Shown: positions 3,151-35,543, numbered from the stretch's first letter. The stretch is 35,543 bases of DNA from Bacteroidota bacterium (GCA_013334735.1 JAAXXA010000002.1:1-35543), one strand, 5' to 3'. Notes: generated from the letters alone by a model not told the origin. Program-made: numbers and translations.

Positions 3151-3190
3151 TTGCACGACCCTTCCATAAATTTATGCTTTTTTGCACGAC
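3151..3190. promoter_or_regulatory. Direct repeat TTGCACGAC x2 (period 31 nt) upstream of the RHH gene; operator-like
   Basis: Copies lie at 3151-3159 and 3182-3190 (GTCGTGCAA on the minus strand). The spacing is about 3 helical turns. Confidence 0.4.
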
Positions 3191-3244
3191 TTCGGACGTG
3201 CTTTAAGTGGTTTAATGCGGCATTGCTGCCGCACCCGTCACCAT

Positions 3245-8044: not shown

Positions 8045-10048
8045 ATGGATTTATCCAAAGTAGTTATCACTAAACGTGATATTACTAATATCAAAAATCT
8101 TGAGTATATTGAAAATCTTAATTTTAAGACACTAGATCAATTTAGAGCTGAGGCTGAAAAACATTATACTGATATTTCTAAAGACTTTCAGTATATTAAA
8201 GAGTTTGTTATCGAAAATAAACAGTGGAATTTTTTCGATGATAAAGTTAAAACTAAAATGTATAACTACGCTGGGCAAGAACTCTATGATTTTTATAAGA
8301 CTTATAATAAAGAACAAGATTTAAAAAAGCCAAAACGTTCTATCAATATTACTAAGACATATCTTGAAACCCTTGTTGCTTCTTTTGCCGAAATAGACCC
8401 TCTGCCTATGGCAATAAGTAAATATGACTATAATATTAAAGATGAAACAAATGATAAGATCAATATATTACTAAATAGCATTTTTAATGAAGAAAATAAT
8501 TTTGATGAGCTTTATGAAGAAGCTTTGTTTAAATCATTTTGTTATCAATATTGTTTTATTCAGCCCGTTATTGATATTGACAAATCAGAAACACGCACTC
8601 CTATCAAACTAAGAATTATTGACCCTGAAGATGTGCGAATCGACCCAATGGCTAAAGATTTGAATGAATGCGACTATCTTTATCAGAAAGTAAAAATGAG
8701 ATATTGGCAAATTAAAGAATTGTGGAACTATGAAGAAGAAATAAAAAAAGATGATGAACCTAAAGATAACGAGATGTGTGATTTAATACACTGGTGGTTT
8801 AGAGGGAAAAACCCTGACGGTAAAACACAGTGGTATTTATTTACTGAGTATGATAAAAAATGGTTAAAGCCTATCGATAAAAAAGGAAAGTTTTATCCTG
8901 AAATGATTGTGTTTGATCATCTTCCTCTCGTTAAATTCTGTCCTGAAAAATATAAAGACGAAACGTCCAGCGATTCTCTGGCTCTTGAAATTATTCCTAT
9001 CAACATTCAGTATAACATTAATCTTAGTGAAGAAGACTATAACATGCTGAGATGGTATAACAGGCCGAAAAAAGTGATTGGTTCTATCCCAGTTGATATG
9101 GCTAATAATGCTAATATTCCTAATGGAGTTATGTCAATAGGGCCAGGTTCTGATGTTGTTCCCTATCAAGTCGATATTCTTCCAACCGCTGAACTTGAAC
9201 AAAGAAAACAATTCCTAAACCAAGAAGTAAAACAAGCTACCGGTATAGACTTTGAACTTCTGGCAGGAGGAAAACCTAAAGGTACGTATTCAAATAATCT
9301 ATTACAAACAATGCAGAGTAAAGCAGATAATAAAACTGATATGATGCAAAAGCATATTTTTTCCGCCATAGAAGAACTGGCATATAAAGCATTGTATCTA
9401 CAATATAGATACATGGATGGAAAAAGCATAGTTATTTTTGATGGCAAAATACAAGATAGCATTGTTATTCATCCGGATGATATTTTAAATATTAAATATA
9501 AAATTGAGATTGATACTAAAGATACCAATCTTATGACACGTGAAACTAAGTTTCAAACTCTCACTCAATTTATGCAGTACAGTCAGGGTAATCCTCTCAT
9601 ACTTTATCCAATGGCTCAAGTATTACAAAATGGCATGCCTCACTTTTTCCCTGATAAAGTGATGGACGCTTTTGGGATTATGTTTGGAAAAGCTATAGAT
9701 CAATTAAGTGCTACTCAACTTCCTCCTAATGGGATTGCATCTTCACAACCAGCTCCTTTTAACCAGACTTTGGCTGCTGGAATGTCTAACCAGCTTCCAG
9801 TAGCTGGAGCTGGTAGTGAAATGCCAGAAGAAGATAATACGGACGGAGTTTCAAATGAACAGCTTTTGAATGAATGGAAAAACGCTGAAGATCAATTGAA
9901 AGAAGCTGGATATAGCGAAGATCAGATAAATGAGTTTTATGACGCTCTTGTAGCGGAGAAAATAGCGGATGGTACTCCAAGAGGAGAAATTATTATGAAT
10001 TTAGAAGAAGCAGTAAATAAGTCTGTAAATAATATGAAGAAAAAATAA
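8045..10048 (+). CDS. Putative portal protein (667 aa)
   Basis: Size and position fit: after terL and before the scaffold and capsid genes. AAGGAG RBS. No motif-level confirmation is possible by eye. Confidence 0.65.
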   Translation: MDLSKVVITKRDITNIKNLEYIENLNFKTLDQFRAEAEKHYTDISKDFQYIKEFVIENKQWNFFDDKVKTKMYNYAGQELYDFYKTYNKEQDLKKPKRSINITKTYLETLVASFAEIDPLPMAISKYDYNIKDETNDKINILLNSIFNEENNFDELYEEALFKSFCYQYCFIQPVIDIDKSETRTPIKLRIIDPEDVRIDPMAKDLNECDYLYQKVKMRYWQIKELWNYEEEIKKDDEPKDNEMCDLIHWWFRGKNPDGKTQWYLFTEYDKKWLKPIDKKGKFYPEMIVFDHLPLVKFCPEKYKDETSSDSLALEIIPINIQYNINLSEEDYNMLRWYNRPKKVIGSIPVDMANNANIPNGVMSIGPGSDVVPYQVDILPTAELEQRKQFLNQEVKQATGIDFELLAGGKPKGTYSNNLLQTMQSKADNKTDMMQKHIFSAIEELAYKALYLQYRYMDGKSIVIFDGKIQDSIVIHPDDILNIKYKIEIDTKDTNLMTRETKFQTLTQFMQYSQGNPLILYPMAQVLQNGMPHFFPDKVMDAFGIMFGKAIDQLSATQLPPNGIASSQPAPFNQTLAAGMSNQLPVAGAGSEMPEEDNTDGVSNEQLLNEWKNAEDQLKEAGYSEDQINEFYDALVAEKIADGTPRGEIIMNLEEAVNKSVNNMKKK

Positions 10049-13063: not shown

Positions 13064-13906
13064 ATGGAAAAAACAAATGTTAGTCCGGTAGTTAATATAG
13101 TACCGGAACAACCTAAAAAACTGATGATAGGTATGCCGTGTTATAACTGTAGTATGCATATTGACGCTACAAAAACATTGATTGAAACGATGGGAGCTGG
13201 TGTAAGTTATAACTGGGTTAGTATTGGCAATGAAAGCTTGATAAGCAGGGCGAGGAATAATATTTTATCGCTGTTTTATCATCAGAAAGATTTTACTCAT
13301 TTGTTGTTCTTAGACGCTGATATTTATATGAATGGACAAGATGTAAAAAAATTATTGGAATCCGGAAAAGATGTTATTGGTGCGGCTGTAAGACTGAAGG
13401 CAAAAAACACTATTTATAATTTTACTTTTGATCAGCCTATCCCAAACTGCGAACCGCCTAAAGAAGACGGAGAAAGATATTATAAAGTGACAAAGTTGGG
13501 AACTGCCGCTTTAATGCTAAGTAGAAAGGCAGTAGAAGCTGTTATTGATAACGCTAAGAAGAAACATGAAAATATTATTAAGCTTTGTTTAAAATTGAAA
13601 GATGTAATGGGAAAAGACTGGCCTAAAGAATATGAAGACATTTTAAATAAAAAAGATGTGCTTAGTCTTTTGAATATCATTGATGGCATTGGGTATATAT
13701 ACGGAAGATCAAGCATATTGATGGGAGGAGACCTAGCTGATAATATGCCTAAAGAATATTATGATATCTGCAAAGTTGGTGTTAAAAATGAGCTTTATTT
13801 AAGTGAGGACTATTACCTTTGCAGCGATCTGAAAGAACTTGGTTTTGATATTTATGTAGATAGAACTATTAGAACAAGACATAACGGTACGGTGGAATTT
13901 GAATAG
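13064..13906 (+). CDS. Putative GT-A fold glycosyltransferase
   Basis: The pattern IGMPCYN...SLISRARNNILSLF...THLLFLDADIYM matches the GT2-like layout with a DxD (DAD) motif. Confidence 0.55.
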   Translation: MEKTNVSPVVNIVPEQPKKLMIGMPCYNCSMHIDATKTLIETMGAGVSYNWVSIGNESLISRARNNILSLFYHQKDFTHLLFLDADIYMNGQDVKKLLESGKDVIGAAVRLKAKNTIYNFTFDQPIPNCEPPKEDGERYYKVTKLGTAALMLSRKAVEAVIDNAKKKHENIIKLCLKLKDVMGKDWPKEYEDILNKKDVLSLLNIIDGIGYIYGRSSILMGGDLADNMPKEYYDICKVGVKNELYLSEDYYLCSDLKELGFDIYVDRTIRTRHNGTVEFE

Positions 13907-14059
13907 ATGAAATACATAGATAAGATAATAGTAATAAAAAATAAAGTTGTTAATTTTATTACTAAGTATACTGAATTAAAAGAATTGCATTTAATAAGAA
14001 TTGATAGATATATTGAAGAAAACAAGATGATAGATAAATATATTTATAGAGAGGTATGA
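13907..14059 (+). CDS. Possible 50-aa ORF between the two glycosyltransferase genes
   Basis: The ATG comes directly after the upstream stop, and there is an ATGA overlap with the next start. No motif. Confidence 0.35.
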   Translation: MKYIDKIIVIKNKVVNFITKYTELKELHLIRIDRYIEENKMIDKYIYREV

Positions 14060-15009
14060 TTATAAAAGGAATTGCAATATTTAACTATTACAGCAATTTT
14101 AATGTTGGCGATAAAATTTTTAATCCTGATAGTTATTTAATAGGAGAAAATCTTGGCTATCCTATTATTTGTTTAAAAAATATATTGAATAAAAAAGGAA
14201 TTGAAATACATACTGCTGACTATTTTAACAGGTTTGAAGATATTGACGCAATGATTTATCTGGATCATTTAACTGGATTTGAAAATAGTTTAAAAAGCAT
14301 TAGAAAGGATTATCCTCACATAAAACACTATTTATTAATTATGGAAAATGAGATAATCAAACCAGATAATTATGACAAAAATAACCACAATTTGTATGAC
14401 AAATGTTTCACGTGGAACGATTATTTTGTTGACGGAGAAAGAATTATAAAGTATTGCATAGGTAATAAACTGCAAAATATTATGTTAAGTACGTTTGAAG
14501 AAAAAGAGAAACTCGCTTGTATGATTTGCGGTAATAAAATGGTGAATCATCCTAAAGAACTCTATAGCGAACGGCTTAAAGCTATAGAATTTTTTGAGAA
14601 TAATTATCCAGAAGATTTTGATTTATATGGGTTTGGATGGGATAAGGATAAACATAAATGCTATAAAGGAATGGTCAAGACTAAAACAGATATATACTCA
14701 AAATATAAGTTTGCTTTTTGTTATGAGAACGCTAAAGAAATAGAAGGATATGTTACTGAAAAAATATGGGATGTTCTTATGAGCGGAACTATACCTATTT
14801 ACTATAAAACAAAAGAACTACCAGATTCAATTTATGTTGATATCTGCAAGTTTGATAATTATCAAGAACTGTATAACTATATGAAAAATATGACCAAGAA
14901 TGATTATGAGTTATTCATTAACAATATAAAAGACTATTTAAACAGTGAGGAAGTAAAACGATATTCAGGGGAATATTTTGCCAAAACTATAATAGATAAT
15001 ATCATTTAA
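14056..15009 (+). CDS. GT10-family (alpha-1,3/4-fucosyltransferase-like) glycosyltransferase
   Basis: YKFAFCYENAKEIEGYVTEKIWDVLMSGTIPIYY matches the GT10 signature as I recall it from Helicobacter FucT (FNLCFENTQGYGYVTEKIIDAYFSHTIPIYWG). Confidence 0.75.
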   Translation: MIIKGIAIFNYYSNFNVGDKIFNPDSYLIGENLGYPIICLKNILNKKGIEIHTADYFNRFEDIDAMIYLDHLTGFENSLKSIRKDYPHIKHYLLIMENEIIKPDNYDKNNHNLYDKCFTWNDYFVDGERIIKYCIGNKLQNIMLSTFEEKEKLACMICGNKMVNHPKELYSERLKAIEFFENNYPEDFDLYGFGWDKDKHKCYKGMVKTKTDIYSKYKFAFCYENAKEIEGYVTEKIWDVLMSGTIPIYYKTKELPDSIYVDICKFDNYQELYNYMKNMTKNDYELFINNIKDYLNSEEVKRYSGEYFAKTIIDNII

Positions 15010-29633: not shown

Positions 29634-29801
29634 TATGCAATGCTTATTTGTCGAAGAAAAATACTGCAAACTGCATGAAATAATGTGTACTGGGAAATGT
29701 AAGGATTATGAGGATGATCTGAGCGATACTGAATTATCGAATGAGAAAATTGCGCCAACAAAGAAGGAGAAAATCTATGAAAATATTAGAGGTCAAGAGG
29801 G
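29634..29801 (+). CDS. Possible 55-aa Cys-rich ORF
   Basis: The translation is MQCLFVEEKYCKLHEIMCTGKCKDYEDD.... It overlaps the next start by 25 nt. Support is weak. Confidence 0.3.
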
Positions 29802-30319
29802 GCGGTAGCTCGATTAATTTCCGGTGTACTAACGGAGATCGTTATGATAGCTCTGCTGTATTGCTGGATGATAGAGGGTTTGAGATATTTTCCTCTCAAT
29901 ATGTCAATACCGATTCCACAAACAGCTACAAGGGTGGTCGCCTTTCCTGCGGGTGTTACTATGGGATAGTTGGATATAGGACCTCCGGTCAAAGAGTGAT
30001 AAAACTATTTTCTAGCAAAGCAGATATTACTAAGATCAAAACAGATAGAGACATTCCAGATTCAATGTTTGCTCTTTCATCAGATATACCTAATTCTAAC
30101 CATGACAATGCATATTATATTGAGTATGTTCAAATTCATTCAGGGGGCACAAGCTGGGATTATAGTCATGGATGTGTTTCTGTTTTAAACTATGGATTAA
30201 ATCCTAACGGAAAAAAATATGAAGAATTTGATAGATTGATGTCTTTTCTAAAAGACAATGAAATCATAATCATCAAACTTTCTCTCGACGAAGGAGTCAA
30301 AACTTTTACGCAGCAATAA
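29777..30319 (+). CDS. Candidate endolysin with an SHGC (YkuD/L,D-transpeptidase-like) motif (180 aa from MKILEV)
   Basis: AAGGAG RBS at the internal Met. IHSGGTSWDYSHGCVSV resembles the His...SHGC catalytic signature, though the His-to-Cys spacing is shorter than in the canonical motif. It is the last gene of the lysis region. Confidence 0.4.
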   Translation: MKILEVKRGGSSINFRCTNGDRYDSSAVLLDDRGFEIFSSQYVNTDSTNSYKGGRLSCGCYYGIVGYRTSGQRVIKLFSSKADITKIKTDRDIPDSMFALSSDIPNSNHDNAYYIEYVQIHSGGTSWDYSHGCVSVLNYGLNPNGKKYEEFDRLMSFLKDNEIIIIKLSLDEGVKTFTQQ

Positions 30320-30935
30320 GTTTGCTAATATATTCTACTCCCTTTGCATTTACTAAAGTCTGTGGTTTGTTAAATACATTTCCAGACATCTCTATAGGTT
30401 TTTCAATTACCTTAAAATATCCTTTATCCATTTCTTTCTGATAAGGTGTATTATTTCCCATCAATATATTTTTATTTCTCAATTTAGAAAATAAAGTATT
30501 TCTACCAATTCCTAAAATGTGTGCTACTTCGTTCATTGATTGCCAACTTTCAGAAGATAAAAACTTGTCGTAAGTCAATACTTTTGGTTTCATTGTTTCG
30601 ATTTGTTCTGCTTGATCGGCAGCAAGTCTAAGAGCTTCTGCGAATGTTTGCGGTAATGTAGGTTTATTTTTGTTTTCAAGTTCAATCCAACGGTCAATAA
30701 TTTTTGTTCTCAATTCTACAGAATAACCAGATATTAAAATCATTATTTCACGATGGGGCAATCTATAACATTTTCTTTCTTCTCTATTAGCTCCCATGTA
30801 AACCGCCTCAAATTTGAGGTGGTCATCTAATTGTGTTTCAATATCACGAATTACATTGTCGTGTCTTTTATTTGTTAGTTCGGCAATCTCTCTGCTATCC
30901 ATCCATAATTCCTGCTTGATAATCAAATCATTCAT
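30306..30935 (-). CDS. Rha-family regulatory protein with a KilAC/antirepressor C-terminal domain
   Basis: The N-terminus SREIAELTNKRHDNVIRDIE is typical of Phage_pRha. The C-terminus (WQSMNEVAHILGIGRNTLFSKLR) is typical of KilAC/Ant domains. Confidence 0.8.
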   Translation of the reverse strand: MNDLIIKQELWMDSREIAELTNKRHDNVIRDIETQLDDHLKFEAVYMGANREERKCYRLPHREIMILISGYSVELRTKIIDRWIELENKNKPTLPQTFAEALRLAADQAEQIETMKPKVLTYDKFLSSESWQSMNEVAHILGIGRNTLFSKLRNKNILMGNNTPYQKEMDKGYFKVIEKPIEMSGNVFNKPQTLVNAKGVEYISKLIAA

Positions 30936-31057: not shown

Positions 31058-31086
31058 ATTATACACCAATTTTTATCGTTTGTCAA
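31058..31086 (-). promoter_or_regulatory. Consensus sigma70 promoter (TTGACA-17-TATAAT) pointing left
   Basis: The -35 is at 31086..31081 (overlapping the stop of the upstream gene) and the -10 at 31063..31058. Confidence 0.6.
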
Positions 31087-31598
31087 GGTAAAGGTATTTC
31101 TTGAGTTATCAATATTCTTGCTTTTCTTTCACATTCCTGTGCATTCTCTTCTTCTAAATCATGCTCTTCATCATGAGTTAAATGATAGCATTCATGCATA
31201 ATTGTAACAGCTATATTATCATAACTTACATCTTCTATATAGTTTTTCATAAAGTAACTATCATCCATATTAAATACAAAATAAATAGTATTTTTTCTAG
31301 AATCATCAATATGAGAATCATTAACATAAGCTATAGCTCTCTTGCATATTCCAACTGGATAATAATCAATCTCTATTCTATTTACTTTTGCTAGTCTCAA
31401 TATTTTAATCATGTTTAAATAATTCAGTTTTTCTAACGCAATATAAATCTTAGTAGCAAACTTCTTGGGCGCAGTTACTTTCACACCATAAATCTTAAAC
31501 GTCACTTCTGTATATGGCGCAACCTGATCGTAAGCAGCCGAATGAACAAAAGAAAAAATAAAGAAGATCAATAAAACAACTAAAATAAATCGTTTCAT
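31083..31598 (-). CDS. Secreted HExxH protein (putative zinc metalloprotease), 171 aa
   Basis: It has an N-terminal signal-like MKRFILVVLLIFFIFSFVHSAAY, the HExxH motif in IMHECYHLTHDEEHD, and an AGGAGG RBS. Confidence 0.6.
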   Translation of the reverse strand: MKRFILVVLLIFFIFSFVHSAAYDQVAPYTEVTFKIYGVKVTAPKKFATKIYIALEKLNYLNMIKILRLAKVNRIEIDYYPVGICKRAIAYVNDSHIDDSRKNTIYFVFNMDDSYFMKNYIEDVSYDNIAVTIMHECYHLTHDEEHDLEEENAQECERKARILITQEIPLP

Positions 31599-31623: not shown

Positions 31624-31692
31624 ATTATATATTATTCATTATTGATTTGTCAATCTGCTAACAGTCGGAATTTTATCCTACTTATAGTCGGA
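31624..31692 (-). promoter_or_regulatory. Leftward promoter P_C: two TCCGACT elements + TTGACA-18-TATAAT
   Basis: The -35 is at 31653..31648 and the -10 at 31629..31624. The elements lie at 31663-31669 and 31686-31692. Confidence 0.6.
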
Positions 31693-31890
31693 TTATATTT
31701 TTGTTTGCCTGATTGTTATTTCTATTTTTGTATTGTTTAATACGCAGTGTAACTCACTATAAGAAAAATTTTTCGCAATTATTTCTTTATCTATTTCAGA
31801 TACAAACAATGTTCCGTCTTCTTCTATTTTATCAATATTAAATAATTCGCTAAATGTGGCAAGCCATGTTTTTCCGCTAACAAATTCCAT
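31693..31890 (-). CDS. Hypothetical 65-aa protein
   Basis: GGAGG RBS. It overlaps the end of the SDR gene. Confidence 0.6.
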   Translation of the reverse strand: MEFVSGKTWLATFSELFNIDKIEEDGTLFVSEIDKEIIAKNFSYSELHCVLNNTKIEITIRQTKI

Positions 31891-32656
31891 TTAGTTTCCT
31901 CCATTCTTTGTATTCATAAATTATATTTCGCATTTCATACGCATTATCTACATTATCGTCCTTAAATTTGTTTATAATACCAAAATAATCTAATAAATGA
32001 TGTAACTTTATTGGCCCAACGTTATTTTTTAAATCAAAATAAGTATTTAATTGTGTTTCTAATATTTCATAACTTATTAAAAAATGTCTTATTATATCAT
32101 ATAGTATACGTGGAGTAATGTAATATAACTTTTTATTCTCTCTAGTCGTGATATTAAACTCATCCCCATCTTTAATATGTTTCAATATATTGCTCATTAA
32201 GAATCCACTATCTAAATTTATCCATCTGCTAAAATAGGCTGGTATTCTGAGATCAATAATATTTAATTCCGGCAATAATCTGTGTTTCATTTCTAAGTAT
32301 TGTTTATTAATTTTATAATGATGCTGCCTATCTCCATATCGTATGTCTTTAGTTACAATCCAGCTACTCATATTGATATAAATAGGTTTTGTTTTATGTT
32401 TTAAATAATCAATAATTATATTGTCAATATAATTATAATCCCATAAATCCTGATAATCGATCGTTGATATTTTAGAAGCGGTTCCTTTCCCGACGCAATT
32501 GATTATTATATTAGGGTTTATTTTGTATAAATAATATTGCCATTCACTATCTCTGCATGATAAAGTGCTTAATTGAATATCTTTATCCTGTTCAAAATAG
32601 TATATCAAACCTTTAGCAATATGGCTAGTGCTACCTAATATCAATACTTTTTTCAT
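31877..32656 (-). CDS. SDR-like NAD(P)-dependent sugar reductase or epimerase (259 aa)
   Basis: It has a Rossmann-like N-terminus KKVLILGSTSHIAKG and a YxxxK (YKINK). The sugar-operon context supports the call. Confidence 0.5.
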   Translation of the reverse strand: MKKVLILGSTSHIAKGLIYYFEQDKDIQLSTLSCRDSEWQYYLYKINPNIIINCVGKGTASKISTIDYQDLWDYNYIDNIIIDYLKHKTKPIYINMSSWIVTKDIRYGDRQHHYKINKQYLEMKHRLLPELNIIDLRIPAYFSRWINLDSGFLMSNILKHIKDGDEFNITTRENKKLYYITPRILYDIIRHFLISYEILETQLNTYFDLKNNVGPIKLHHLLDYFGIINKFKDDNVDNAYEMRNIIYEYKEWRKLNGIC

Positions 32657-32657
32657 G

Positions 32658-32981
32658 TTAATCTTTGCTTGTTTCTATAACTTTGTTAATACCATATTCT
32701 ATTATATTATATCCGGTGCGATATATTTTTCCGTGTTCACTATTTTTATAAAATTTTTCATCTGGTAATTTATCTATAGTTGCCTTTTTCCATTTTTCAT
32801 ATTCTTCCCAATCACAAGATAAATAAGTTGTTCCATCAGATCGGGTTAGTATTCTATTTCCACTAGAAATAGCTTTTTTTTTCAAATAATTAACAATTGC
32901 TTTTAAAGCGTTTTCTTTTGTGTCAGACATAACATGATAAGATAATCCATAATCATTGTATTCAAAAGAATATAATTTCAT
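32658..32981 (-). CDS. Hypothetical 107-aa protein in the sugar operon
   Basis: ATGA overlap with the rfbH-like stop. No motif. Confidence 0.7.
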   Translation of the reverse strand: MKLYSFEYNDYGLSYHVMSDTKENALKAIVNYLKKKAISSGNRILTRSDGTTYLSCDWEEYEKWKKATIDKLPDEKFYKNSEHGKIYRTGYNIIEYGINKVIETSKD

Positions 32982-34174
32982 ACAAAATACTCCTCAATAG
33001 TTTTTACAATATAGTCTATTTCCTTCTTTCCAATGCCTGGATGGCAGCCTATCCACAATGTATTTTCAGATACATAATCAGCTATTGGATAATCCTGTTT
33101 ATCGCTATAAGAAAGATAGGCTGGATGCTTAGTAAAGTTACCAGCAAATAGAGGGCGTGTAGCTATTCCTTTTGATTCTAAATAATCAACAAATTGTTTT
33201 CTTCTGTTTTTATTAGAGAGTGTCATGGGGAATCCAAACCATGAAGGAATAGAATCTTTTTCAAATCCATGGAGTTTTAAATCTTTTATGTGTTTTAATT
33301 TCCCAAACAATGTAGAGTTATTCAATACTCTTTTTACTACAAACTTATCTAATCTTTTAAATTGAGCCACACCAATAGAAGCGCATAATTCAGGCATTTT
33401 TAGATTGTATCCAATATGTTCTACCACTGACTTGTGATCATAGCCAAAAGGAAGCTTTCCATATTTCTGAGAGAATCTTTTTCCGCAAAGATTATCTTTA
33501 TTTGGAGGACAAACACAAGCCCTTCCCCAGTTACAATAAGACTGGATAATATTATATAACTCAGTATCATTAGTACAGACCGCCCCTCCCTCGCCTGTAG
33601 TAATGTGATGAGCTGGATAAAAACTTAGTGTTGATATGTGTCCGAATGAACCTGTCTTTTTTTCTTTATACACACTTCCTAAAGCGTCGCAGTTGTCTTC
33701 AATCAACCATAGCTTATGCTTCTTGCAGATAGCCATAATCTTTGTCATGTTGCACGGATTCCCAAGTGTATGCACTATGAATATTGCCTTAGTCTTTTTA
33801 GTTATTTTAGATTCTATTTGATTCTCGTCAATATTAAGTGTATCCAATTTGATATCTACAAACACAGGCACTAGGTTGTTTTGTAATATTGGGTTTAAAG
33901 TAGTAGGAAATCCGCATATAGAAGTAATAACTTCATCTCCAGCTTTAATATGGTTCTTGAGATTTGGAGAAGTTAATGCTGTCATTGCTAACAAGTTAGC
34001 TGAAGACCCTGAATTACAAAGAGCAGTATGTTTTACTCCAAGATATTCTGATAATAGTTTAGGAAGTATTCTTGTGTTTTTCCCTGCCGCATAATCGCCT
34101 TTAAATACTGCTTTAATAAGCGTCCATATTTCTGGAAGTCCTGTGATAGCTTTTCCTGTTGTAATTCGTTTCAT
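32978..34174 (-). CDS. rfbH: RfbH/DdhC (E1)-type PMP-dependent CDP-4-keto-6-deoxyglucose 3-dehydratase
   Basis: Several blocks match Salmonella RfbH as I recall it: SGSSANLLAMTALTSP, GDEVITSICGFPTTLNP, SFYPAHHITTGEGGAV (His in place of the PLP Lys), NWGRACVCPPNKDNLCGKRF (Fe-S Cys cluster), GYDHK, PSWFGFPMTL. Confidence 0.9.
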   Translation of the reverse strand: MKRITTGKAITGLPEIWTLIKAVFKGDYAAGKNTRILPKLLSEYLGVKHTALCNSGSSANLLAMTALTSPNLKNHIKAGDEVITSICGFPTTLNPILQNNLVPVFVDIKLDTLNIDENQIESKITKKTKAIFIVHTLGNPCNMTKIMAICKKHKLWLIEDNCDALGSVYKEKKTGSFGHISTLSFYPAHHITTGEGGAVCTNDTELYNIIQSYCNWGRACVCPPNKDNLCGKRFSQKYGKLPFGYDHKSVVEHIGYNLKMPELCASIGVAQFKRLDKFVVKRVLNNSTLFGKLKHIKDLKLHGFEKDSIPSWFGFPMTLSNKNRRKQFVDYLESKGIATRPLFAGNFTKHPAYLSYSDKQDYPIADYVSENTLWIGCHPGIGKKEIDYIVKTIEEYFV

Positions 34175-34177
34175 TAG

Positions 34178-34891
34178 TTACTCCTTATAATTATCAATAT
34201 AACTTTTTAGTTTTGACACTTCTAAATCTCTCAGTCCTTGTGTGCCTTGATAAACAGCTTGATCGTAAGCGAACCAATTATTCATCTCATCTATAATCAA
34301 TTGATCAGGTTCTACTTTCATAAGCACAGGGCTGGAATGTTCAACCTCTATTTCTTTCAAGTATTCAGTTTTTCCAAGCTTTGAAAATACATAGTATATC
34401 CAGTTGTCAGAGAAGTAATGCTTTAACATATGACACGAATAATTTCTTGTTACCTGCAAGTAATTTTTATGAACTATATAATGACGAGGCAATGTTTCAC
34501 TTCCGGCTCCATCATTAATCCACCTACAAAATATTTTATCTTTTGTGTCTGACTTGAATTTATCTATAATAATCTTATCCCAATCTTTTGTTTTAAATTC
34601 AAGATCATTTGACACAGCAAATAACAATTCATTGTTTGCCATCTGCCCTAAGTAATTAAACTTATCATTGAGATGGTACGGACGTTTAAATTGGTGTAAT
34701 TGATAATCCAATTCTAAATCATTGACGTCTAACTTTTGAAAGAATTCATACAACTGGTCTTCTTCATCTACGTCATAGCCAAACACTATTTCAATATTTT
34801 CTGGATCGTTAACAGTATCAATAATAGATTGCAAACACTTTTTTAGTTTCTCAAGTCGTCCTCTTGTAGCTAGCAATAATGATATCTTCAT
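34178..34891 (-). CDS. Putative GT-A/GT2-like glycosyltransferase (start moved to MKISLLL)
   Basis: AAGGAGG lies upstream of the ATG at 34891. The N-terminus MKISLLLATRGRLEKLKKCLQSIIDT...IEIVFGYDVDEED fits the GT2-like layout. Confidence 0.45.
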   Translation of the reverse strand: MKISLLLATRGRLEKLKKCLQSIIDTVNDPENIEIVFGYDVDEEDQLYEFFQKLDVNDLELDYQLHQFKRPYHLNDKFNYLGQMANNELLFAVSNDLEFKTKDWDKIIIDKFKSDTKDKIFCRWINDGAGSETLPRHYIVHKNYLQVTRNYSCHMLKHYFSDNWIYYVFSKLGKTEYLKEIEVEHSSPVLMKVEPDQLIIDEMNNWFAYDQAVYQGTQGLRDLEVSKLKSYIDNYKE

Positions 34892-34901
34892 GTTTCCTCC
34901 T

Positions 34902-35486
34902 TTATAAACTTGGCAATAATACTTGGTTAGGATCACACATTACTTCGCATATACATGGATTTTTACTATTAATTATTTCATCCAAGCGTTTATCAATTAA
35001 TCCTATATCATCAATTAAATCCCATCGAATGTCATAAGCTTCTGAAAGTGATAATAAATAAGGAAATTTAAAATCAGTTCCATTCCTTGCGCCATTAAAA
35101 AACTTATTGCTTGTGTTTTTTATAGTGAGATACCCGCCATTATTAATCACAAATAGTTTAACATTGAGATTATAATTTCTTATAGTAATCAATTCCTGTA
35201 TGTTAAATTGAAAACTTCCATCACCTGTTAATCCTATCACTGGCCTGTTATCAGCAACAGCCGCTCCCACACAAGCAGGCAATGTAAATCCCATCTCTGC
35301 CTGACTGCTTGTGATATATCTCATTCCTTCTTTAAGCTTTAATGCTTGAGGACAAGCAAAAAATACTGAGCCAGCGTCTGCTATAACTACTGCGTTATCT
35401 GGAAGATGGTCTGATAGCTTTTCTAAAAAATAATAAAGATTAATATTATTATCTGAATTAATTAAATGAGATTGAATTTCCATCAT
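34902..35486 (-). CDS. Thiamine-diphosphate-binding (PP) domain protein, acetolactate-synthase/YerE-like C-terminal module only
   Basis: GLTGDGSFQFNIQELITIRNYNLNVKLFVINNGGY is the ThDP-binding GDG...NN motif. At 194 aa it is only the C-terminal third of a full-length enzyme. Confidence 0.85.
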   Translation of the reverse strand: MMEIQSHLINSDNNINLYYFLEKLSDHLPDNAVVIADAGSVFFACPQALKLKEGMRYITSSQAEMGFTLPACVGAAVADNRPVIGLTGDGSFQFNIQELITIRNYNLNVKLFVINNGGYLTIKNTSNKFFNGARNGTDFKFPYLLSLSEAYDIRWDLIDDIGLIDKRLDEIINSKNPCICEVMCDPNQVLLPSL

Positions 35487-35543
35487 TTTATATTCCGCCC
35501 TATAAACTTTACATTTTTTAATCCATTAATTCTTCAAATGAAT

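Follow-up and report, generated by a model that had tools for sequence, protein, structure and literature searches.

Introduction

Yersiniose, erwiniose, and other branched 3,6-dideoxy sugars have been described in bacterial lipopolysaccharides (LPS), and the YerE-like enzymes, which depend on thiamine diphosphate (ThDP), are sought as catalysts for chiral tertiary alcohols. YerE, ErwE, MMAR_2332, and MygE branch 3,6-dideoxy-4-keto sugars in LPS biosynthesis, the acceptor of YerE-like enzymes being CDP-3,6-dideoxy-4-keto-glucose, and a class of split transketolases has been proposed to add hydroxyacetyl branches to keto sugars (PMC12247030). The same 2025 review described viruses as unexplored territory for such ThDP enzymes (PMC12247030). 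In the present study, we examined a 35,543-nucleotide stretch of DNA (hereafter, the window) from a Bacteroidota bacterium assembly (GCA_013334735.1, JAAXXA010000002.1:1-35543), the right end of which carries an operon for an E1-type sugar 3-dehydratase, a ThDP-binding protein, a reductase, and a glycosyltransferase (GT) next to phage genes. On balance, we favor the view that this is a phage-borne auxiliary operon, partly visible in the window, which would make a nucleotide-activated C-4-branched 3,6-dideoxyhexose of the yersiniose/erwiniose class and transfer it to an acceptor, most likely on the virion or the host surface.

Composition of the operon and identity of the E1 enzyme

The right 5 kb of the window consists of minus-strand open reading frames (ORFs) that overlap or nearly abut, forming a tightly packed operon at 31693–35543. 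All of the genes that a first-pass annotation had placed there were present on the minus strand, in the following order of transcription.

35526–35543 (−): end of an upstream ThDP ORF, consisting of its last five codons (IHLKN) and a TAA stop
35487–35525 (−): 13 codons, WIKKCKVYRAEYK, between the in-frame TAA and a restart ATG
34902–35486 (−): ThDP PP-domain ORF, 194 aa, with a short C-terminus; Pfam TPP_enzyme_C, 93 bits
34178–34891 (−): GT-A glycosyltransferase, 237 aa, soluble; true ATG at 34891 behind an AAGGAGG site
32978–34174 (−): RfbH-like E1 gene, 398 aa; NDP-4-keto-6-deoxyhexose 3-dehydratase of the RfbH/DdhC/AscC family, dependent on pyridoxamine 5'-phosphate (PMP) and a [2Fe-2S] cluster
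32658–32981 (−): p107, a small conserved protein with no family match in Pfam, NCBIfam, and PHROG scans
31877–32656 (−): p259, a shortened, divergent NDP-sugar reductase of the extended short-chain dehydrogenase/reductase (SDR) type
31693–31890 (−): p65, a small ORF that closes the operon and overlaps the stop codon of p259; no homologues were found

The E1 protein scored 510 bits with the NCBIfam RfbH model NF011936, against a cut-off of 423, and 304 bits with Pfam DegT, and it aligned end to end, across residues 7–397, with the solved E1 of Yersinia (PDB 3BCX/3BB8; 386 bits). The first-pass annotation had called this protein an unambiguous E1-type 3-dehydratase in which His replaces the Lys that binds pyridoxal 5'-phosphate, and both statements held: the equivalent of His220 lies in FYPAHHITTGEGG, aligned to FYPAHHITMGEGG of the Yersinia enzyme. 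All four cysteines of the [2Fe-2S] cluster are kept (equivalents of C193, C251, C253, and C261), the first in EDNCDALG (EDCCDALG in Yersinia) and the others in C-V-C-x7-C (RACVCPPNKDNLC versus RDCYCAPGCDNTC in Yersinia). The cluster had earlier been written as CxxxxxCxCx7C; its CxCx7C part indeed provides ligands, whereas the first Cys of that pattern (SYC) is no E1 ligand, the fourth ligand being the Cys of EDNCDALG.

Linkage of ThDP and dehydratase genes, and related phage contigs

The ThDP ORF and the 3-dehydratase gene lie in one operon in the window, and the same association was seen across 189 loci, of viral, genomic, and metagenomic origin, that code for relatives of the ThDP domain. 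Many of these loci are short contigs, and DegT-family proteins were counted within the fetched flank. Such a protein was found in 73 of the 189 loci; in 67 of the 73, a lower bound, His replaces Lys, and these proteins are hence dehydratases and not aminotransferases. The CxCx7C motif of E1 occurred in 30 of those 67 loci, and p259 homologues co-occurred in six of the 189. Uncultured viral contigs with pairs of ThDP and dehydratase genes were also present in IMG/VR.

A canonical cellular cluster (L080) has the order RfbF-RfbG-E1-HpcH aldolase-ThDP-DmpF-DmpG-SDR-p259-like SDR-GT2, with a glucose-1-phosphate cytidylyltransferase (462 bits) and a CDP-glucose 4,6-dehydratase (521 bits). The closest cellular relative of the window E1 is encoded in a cluster of the Candidate Phyla Radiation (CPR; L031) with the order ThDP-SDR-GT2-E1-GT10. 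Patescibacteria/CPR genomes (for example Staskawiczbacteria, Falkowbacteria, Shapirobacteria, and Gracilibacteria) likewise supply several of the cellular sequences nearest to the ThDP domain (L031–L034 and L038). These sequence relationships may hint at the host range of the phage or at the source of its cargo.

Related uncultured phage contigs were found through homologues of p259, the GT, and TerL. In one group (L191–L195), the identities to the window were 69% for the GT, 59% for E1, 52% for p259, 44% for p107, 39% for p171 (the gene that follows the operon), and 86% for a tail-protein C-terminus. Their gene order is VRR_NUC, and further on a recombination protein, SSB, two small ORFs, GT, E1, p259-like, split transketolase, GMD-like/cupin, and p171-like, and genes for T5orf172, ORF6N, lysis, and tail proteins run convergently toward the block. 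The p107 homologue of L191 lies between the two transketolase halves. The other relative is a 49-kb JGI contig (L196/L197) with 39% identity to the window in TerL and 43% in the lysis-cassette protein p192; its order is VRR_NUC, SLT, Mgm101-like recombinase, SSB, GT, E1, p259-like, GMD-like, cupin-like, class I/II aminotransferase, and split YerE-like ThDP, with the lysis gene coming immediately after.

GT-E1-p259 was constant in these relatives, whereas the ThDP component varied: YerE-like and upstream of the GT in the window, YerE-like, split, and distal in L196, and a split transketolase (TK_N and TK_pyr) in L191–L195. This non-orthologous replacement, with GT-E1-p259 unchanged, argues that a ThDP-dependent C–C branching step is integral to the pathway.

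Interruption of the ThDP gene

The ThDP domain in the window retains an intact GDG-x24-NN motif (GDGSFQ...FVINN, with 24 residues between the parts). Among solved structures it matched JanthE (8RPH) with 107 bits, acetolactate synthase (ALS) I of E. coli with 58 bits, and PpYerE with 56 bits, the YerE side of this comparison consisting of PpYerE. The full-length relative in L031 showed the same preference (JanthE 424, PpYerE 282, and ALS 251 bits). The domain, which thus did not side with the ordinary acetolactate synthases, lay closest to JanthE and is predicted to be part of a JanthE/YerE-like carboligase. Its best relative is the L196 enzyme (53.5% identity), which has an equally short C-terminus.

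The gene is interrupted by an in-frame TAA at 35526–35528, in the same frame as the downstream PP-domain ORF, which the first-pass annotation did not mention. Translation upstream of the PP domain reads IHLKN, the TAA stop, WIKKCKVYRAEYK, and then MMEIQ. A MAFFT alignment with eight full-length relatives (585–606 aa) placed the TAA inside a conserved linker motif, N-W-[LI]-x-x-C, at the junction of the middle and PP domains; homology to the linker of the intact enzymes persists in the 13 codons that follow the stop, and the tblastn match to the L031 enzyme starts at 35525. Therefore, the upstream ORF presumably encodes the Pyr and middle domains and lies mostly past the contig end; no ThDP N-domain was found anywhere in the window, and the ThDP gene seen there is not one for a single polypeptide with Pyr, middle, and PP domains. 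Recoding of the stop codon was considered and rejected, as TAA terminates the GT and ThDP ORFs.

Because the ThDP gene is split by a stop and incomplete in the window, branching by the window phage is not assured, and several points weigh against it. The TAA is an ordinary stop elsewhere in the operon and is followed by 13 codons that are still recognizably coding; the ribosome-binding site at the restart is weak; the two N-terminal ThDP domains are not visible in the window; and p259 could equally be a plain 4-ketoreductase, its fold being shared with NDP-sugar 4-ketoreductases, for instance GDP-fucose synthase and RmlD. Neither the nucleotidyltransferase and 4,6-dehydratase nor the E3 reductase of such a pathway is encoded in the window. 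JanthE is a characterized YerE-like, ketone-accepting carboligase, the natural substrate of which is unknown (PMC12188165). The interruption may be recent and inactivating, in which case the ThDP gene would be a young pseudogene and the product an unbranched 3,6-dideoxyhexose (abequose-, paratose-, or colitose-like), deoxygenated by E1, reduced by p259 as a 4-ketoreductase and transferred by the GT-A.

We regard this alternative as unlikely, though it deserves to be weighed. The PP-domain ORF is intact over 194 codons with its GDG-x24-NN motif complete at only 50–54% identity to relatives, which argues for long purifying selection on the domain. YerE-like ThDP genes split at domain borders recur in related viral contigs: in L011 and L018 the N-terminal and middle domains are separated from the C-terminal domain, and in L196 the N-terminal domain is separated by a lipoprotein gene from the middle and C-terminal domains. 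The short C-terminus, shared with L196, is common to about half of the 189 ThDP-domain relatives. These recurrent splits, together with the shared short C-terminus, favor a functional split. Further, L191 and L196, in which the operon is visible end to end, each retain a ThDP enzyme.

An unrelated small ORF, zinc-finger or lipoprotein-like, was observed between the ThDP pieces of L011 (8001–10606), L018 (4333–6572), and L196 (11499–13429).

The earlier proposal of a branched dideoxy sugar was thus borne out in that the E1 is genuine, the ThDP domain is near JanthE, and the linkage to dehydratases recurs; it was weakened in that the ThDP gene is split and incomplete.

Carrier nucleotide, reductase, and proposed pathway

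As the first-pass annotation had stated, the cytidylyltransferase, the 4,6-dehydratase, and E3 are absent from the window, and no transketolase was found in it either. No DdhA/DdhB-type CDP-glucose genes and no E3 partner were detected in the window or in L191/L196, and no nucleotidyltransferase is encoded in the phage relatives. The dehydratase of L191/L196 is of the GDP-mannose type (TIGR01472, 377–389 bits, versus 84–92 bits for the CDP-glucose type). E1 enzymes are known with CDP sugars, and the pairing of E1 with a GMD-like dehydratase in these sister phages is therefore unusual. Because the relatives have a GMD-like dehydratase and the window has no such genes, the carrier nucleotide may be GDP, not CDP; the CDP-glucose route was an assumption of the first-pass annotation.

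In L191 (11603–12880) and L196 (7927–9226), the GMD-like dehydratase was observed to be fused to, or followed by, a cupin-like domain.

The p259 protein itself had no Pfam match, and PF01370 was carried by most of the p259 homologues listed at less than 37% identity. Its Ser97/98-Tyr114-Lys118 triad is conserved, and its AlphaFold2 (AF2) model (pLDDT 93) has a Rossmann fold for which Foldseek returned CapF, GDP-fucose synthase, and RmlD. On the basis of this model, p259 is a candidate side-chain or 4-keto reductase.

Building on the gene identities, catalytic motifs, folds, conserved synteny, and phage residence observed here, we infer the substrates, nucleotide, donor 2-oxo acid, step order, split-enzyme activity, and acceptor of the following scheme. 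An NDP-4-keto-6-deoxyhexose would be supplied by the host or by genes upstream of the contig end; it is possibly GDP-4-keto-6-deoxymannose, since the phage relatives carry a GMD-like dehydratase. E1 would remove the C-3 hydroxyl via PMP and the [2Fe-2S] cluster, with electrons from a host reductase, as E3 is not encoded. A two-polypeptide JanthE/YerE-like enzyme would then decarboxylate a 2-oxo acid and add the acyl anion to the C-4 ketone, p259 would reduce the new side-chain carbonyl, and the GT-A would transfer the sugar; the GT10 and Anp1-like GTs described below would probably extend or attach the same glycan.

Glycosyltransferases and the acceptor

The E1 gene had been described as flanked by a ThDP-binding protein, an SDR-like reductase, and a GT-A, and AF2 and Foldseek confirmed the SDR and GT folds. 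The operon GT-A matched phrog_14945 (glycosyltransferase; E = 1.3e-20) and scored 20.1 bits with Pfam GT2, below the cut-off of 23.3. It has no canonical DxD motif; N-D-L stands instead, with D96 alone invariant. The closest solved structures to its AF2 model (pLDDT 89.8) were the teichoic-acid glycosyltransferases TarS, TarP, and RmlT (E of about 1e-8 for TarS and TarP), and the nearest predicted viral structure in BFVD was a Mimivirus GT2 (TM 0.88). The family is very small, with nine members in 5.8 billion clusters.

Two additional GT genes, which the first-pass annotation had overlooked, were found in the virion structural module.

13064–13906 (+): probable Anp1-like GT-A gene, 280 aa, phrog_1574, preceding the GT10 gene
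14056–15009 (+): GT10-family (fucosyltransferase-like) gene; PF00852, 47 bits against a cut-off of 23.9

These two genes (13064–15009) lie at the GC minimum of the window (26.6%). The GT10 shows 37% identity both to the one encoded after E1 in L031 and to its counterpart in a related phage, L199. The Anp1-like protein itself had no Pfam match; of 32 homologues sampled from 2991, nine hit Pfam Anp1 and others GT21, GT2, or GT7C, all weak matches, and D84-x-D86 is invariant. From the Pfam matches of its homologues, the product is probably another GT-A. An hhalign comparison of the 280-aa protein with the operon GT-A family was not significant.

Virion-protein glycosylation is known in mycobacteriophages and giant viruses. 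By analogy, the placement of GT genes among structural genes hints at glycosylation of virion proteins; modification of a host-surface glycan is equally possible. The arrangement is conserved in L199, where a homologue of the operon GT-A (49% identity) lies in the structural module two genes ahead of the GT10. The structural proteins showed no tails rich in Ser/Thr.

At the left contig end (1–111, plus strand), an ORF enters the window and finishes in a Thr/Pro/Ser repeat, TTTTTPTSTTTSTSTTTTTPTSTPTTTTTTTPTSTL, directly before its stop, coded by (ACCNCG)n, in which the assembly probably broke. A mucin-like tail of this kind beside a glycosylation operon could be a substrate for glycosylation.

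A bolder form of the favored reading is that small tailed phages of one lineage make their own GDP-linked C-branched 3,6-dideoxy sugar, by E1 acting on a GDP-mannose-derived substrate and by interchangeable, domain-split ThDP carboligases, and that three GTs, two of them encoded in the structural module, build this sugar into a virion-protein glycan; in this full form we consider the proposal speculative and rather improbable. That the product decorates neither a glycan nor a protein but, for example, the bases of phage DNA, as an anti-restriction hypermodification expressed with early DNA-metabolism genes, appears highly improbable. The small, soluble GT-A would suit such a role, and in the relatives the operon comes immediately after genes for SSB, a recombinase, and a nuclease, within the early transcription unit. 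However, neither the window nor L191/L196 showed hydroxymethylase, DNA-base-modifying, or nucleotide kinase genes, the GT-A model has transferases of polysaccharides, teichoic acids, and viral glycans as its structural neighbors, and the GT10 and Anp1-like genes belong to the late structural module.

Phage residence and surroundings of the operon

The first-pass annotation left open whether the operon is phage cargo or the edge of host DNA, and correctly recognized that phage regulatory genes adjoin it. The following features lie beyond the operon.

31624–31653 (−): sigma-70 consensus TTGACA-18-TATAAT, a 12/12 match, just past the operon end and positioned to drive p171
31083–31598 (−): p171, which begins with a hydrophobic leader interpreted as a signal peptide and contains HECYH, a motif of the HExxH type
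30306–30935 (−): Ant/Rha antirepressor; Pfam ANT 83 bits, Phage_pRha 58 bits, phrog_63 E = 1e-55

The p171 homologue (39% identity) occupies the same post-operon position in L191/L195 (L191 12950–13438), and p171 is possibly an exported metallopeptidase-like moron. The operon had been said to end at the P_C promoter; only the perfect sigma-70 consensus at 31653–31624 is found there, and the label P_C has no support. A second perfect 12/12 sigma-70 site lies at 31086–31058, ahead of Ant, and no terminator was found between the operon and the p171/Ant promoter sites. The Ant gene converges on plus-strand lysis and structural genes, and the remainder of the window belongs to a highly divergent tailed phage (TerL 6107–7723, portal 8045–10048, and tail proteins of 1541 and 1250 aa), most of whose proteins had no match among the PHROG families.

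The codon usage of the operon matched that of the phage core (relative synonymous codon usage, r = 0.91) about as well as that of the early genes did (0.94) and correlated poorly with that of the CPR cluster (0.48), and the read depth, about 9.7x, was uniform over the operon and the adjacent phage genes. The homologous operon of the relatives has phage genes on both sides, GT-E1-p259 lying between SSB/nuclease/recombinase genes and lysis/tail genes; the operon is therefore regarded as phage-embedded cargo, and from this gene order it would stand at the end of the early transcription unit. That it is instead host chromosome beside a prophage end, with a boundary between Ant and the operon, is very unlikely: in favor of this, the ends are undefined, as no integrase or att site was identified, bacterial glycan clusters contain the cellular sequences closest to E1 and the ThDP domain, and equal depth is also expected of an integrated prophage, but the L191–L195 and L196/L197 blocks are flanked by phage genes, in phages that share TerL, tail, and lysis homologues with the window, p171 homologues follow the operon in relatives too, the L199 GT-A homologue lies within the structural module, and the GT family is almost restricted to these contigs.

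The locus is represented by a single metagenomic contig at about 10x depth, the sequence of which occurs in one sequencing run alone (SRR11449211, a biofilm metagenome). The contig end has no overlapping contig in that run. Rightward extension by exact-protein look-up returned only a 2.2-kb Logan contig ending at the identical place, and extension via GTDB genomes and JGI metagenomes returned nothing more than 51% identical. Joining the ends of the window into a circle was considered and was not demonstrable. Neither the operon nor the phage core had a Megablast match among GenBank phages, and scans of IMG/VR with E1, p192, and TerL gave no close relatives.

Other observations were made in the window. 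A type-P5 twister ribozyme lies at 3185–3242 on the minus strand, between small regulatory-looking ORFs of the early-gene arm; it scored 50.3 bits with Rfam RF02684, the gathering score of which is 37.6. A GC-richer, non-coding stretch of 440 bp (450–890) contains a perfect 12-bp inverted repeat at 497–532 and, at about 700–790 on the minus strand, a sequence resembling the acceptor, D-arm, and T-arm of a tRNA, called by neither ARAGORN nor Rfam; Rfam returned nothing over 400–950. The lysis-cassette protein p192 (29741–30319, plus strand) contains the motif H-x8-S-H-G-C, which recalls YkuD-type L,D-transpeptidase folds; the protein is conserved in L191 (36%) as well as in L196 and has no Pfam or PHROG match.

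Comparison with known systems

The chemistry proposed here is already known from bacterial O-antigens, while its phage setting is new, as no phage in the searched GenBank collection carries it. By tblastn against GenBank cultured phages, the GT-A had no homologue, E1 matched only dehydratases of cyanophages (37%) and host-DNA fragments, and the ThDP domain found no JanthE/YerE-like enzyme, only acetolactate-synthase-like matches of 27–33%, several of them annotated as acetolactate synthase. No paper linking yersiniose-type pathways to phages was found in the literature. The window and its relatives point to a phage lineage that carries an E1-ThDP-SDR-GT module as cargo, with the ThDP part swapped between superfamilies and repeatedly split at domain borders. 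Such phages may offer natural two-piece carboligases for engineering and possibly a GDP-dependent E1, and they are candidates for phage-directed glycosylation of the virion or host surface with an unusual sugar, which bears on phage–host recognition and immune evasion.

The closest described system is the yersiniose A pathway of Y. pseudotuberculosis O:6/O:12 (DdhA/B, DdhC/AscC, DdhD/AscD, YerE, and YerF), the E1 of which has the same His and four Cys as that of the window, and in which a ThDP carboligase from the decarboxylase superfamily is likewise encoded alongside an NAD(P)H reductase and a transferase. In contrast to that pathway, the window operon is phage-borne and lacks DdhA, DdhB, and E3, its ThDP enzyme is split and nearer to JanthE than to the YerE homologue PpYerE, its phage relatives pair E1 with a GDP-mannose-type dehydratase, and its reductase is a shortened SDR with a putative YerF-like role. 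JanthE of Janthinobacterium sp. HH01, the best solved match of the PP domain, belongs with ErwE, MMAR_2332, and MygE to a subclass accepting non-activated ketones, in which the PP domain is placed as well; JanthE has a CDG motif, whereas the window enzyme has the canonical GDG, and the C-terminal tail of about 40–50 residues found in JanthE and many of its relatives is absent from the window protein and from L196. Aldolase/DmpFG genes accompany enzymes with long-chain donors, such as that of L080, and since the window has none of them, a short donor such as pyruvate is more likely.

The split-gene transketolases of miharamycin/amipurimycin biosynthesis, for which a role has only been proposed (PMC12247030), resemble the TK_N and TK_pyr halves of L191–L195, which stand where the window lineage has its YerE-like enzyme and have no counterpart in the window. 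As in the glycosylation systems of mycobacteriophages and giant viruses, GT genes stand among the structural genes of the window, and the operon GT-A is near the Mimivirus GT2; the window differs in adding genes for modification of an unusual sugar (E1, ThDP, and SDR), and its virion glycosylation is putative. No integrase, GtrA, or GtrB was found in the window, the genome being incomplete, so that an integrase may sit elsewhere. Finally, the fold of the GT-A resembles that of TarP/TarS, and, as with the prophage-encoded TarP of S. aureus and the Gtr cassettes, the phage cargo could alter the host surface; unlike in those systems, the sugar donor would be made by the phage and not taken from the host pool.

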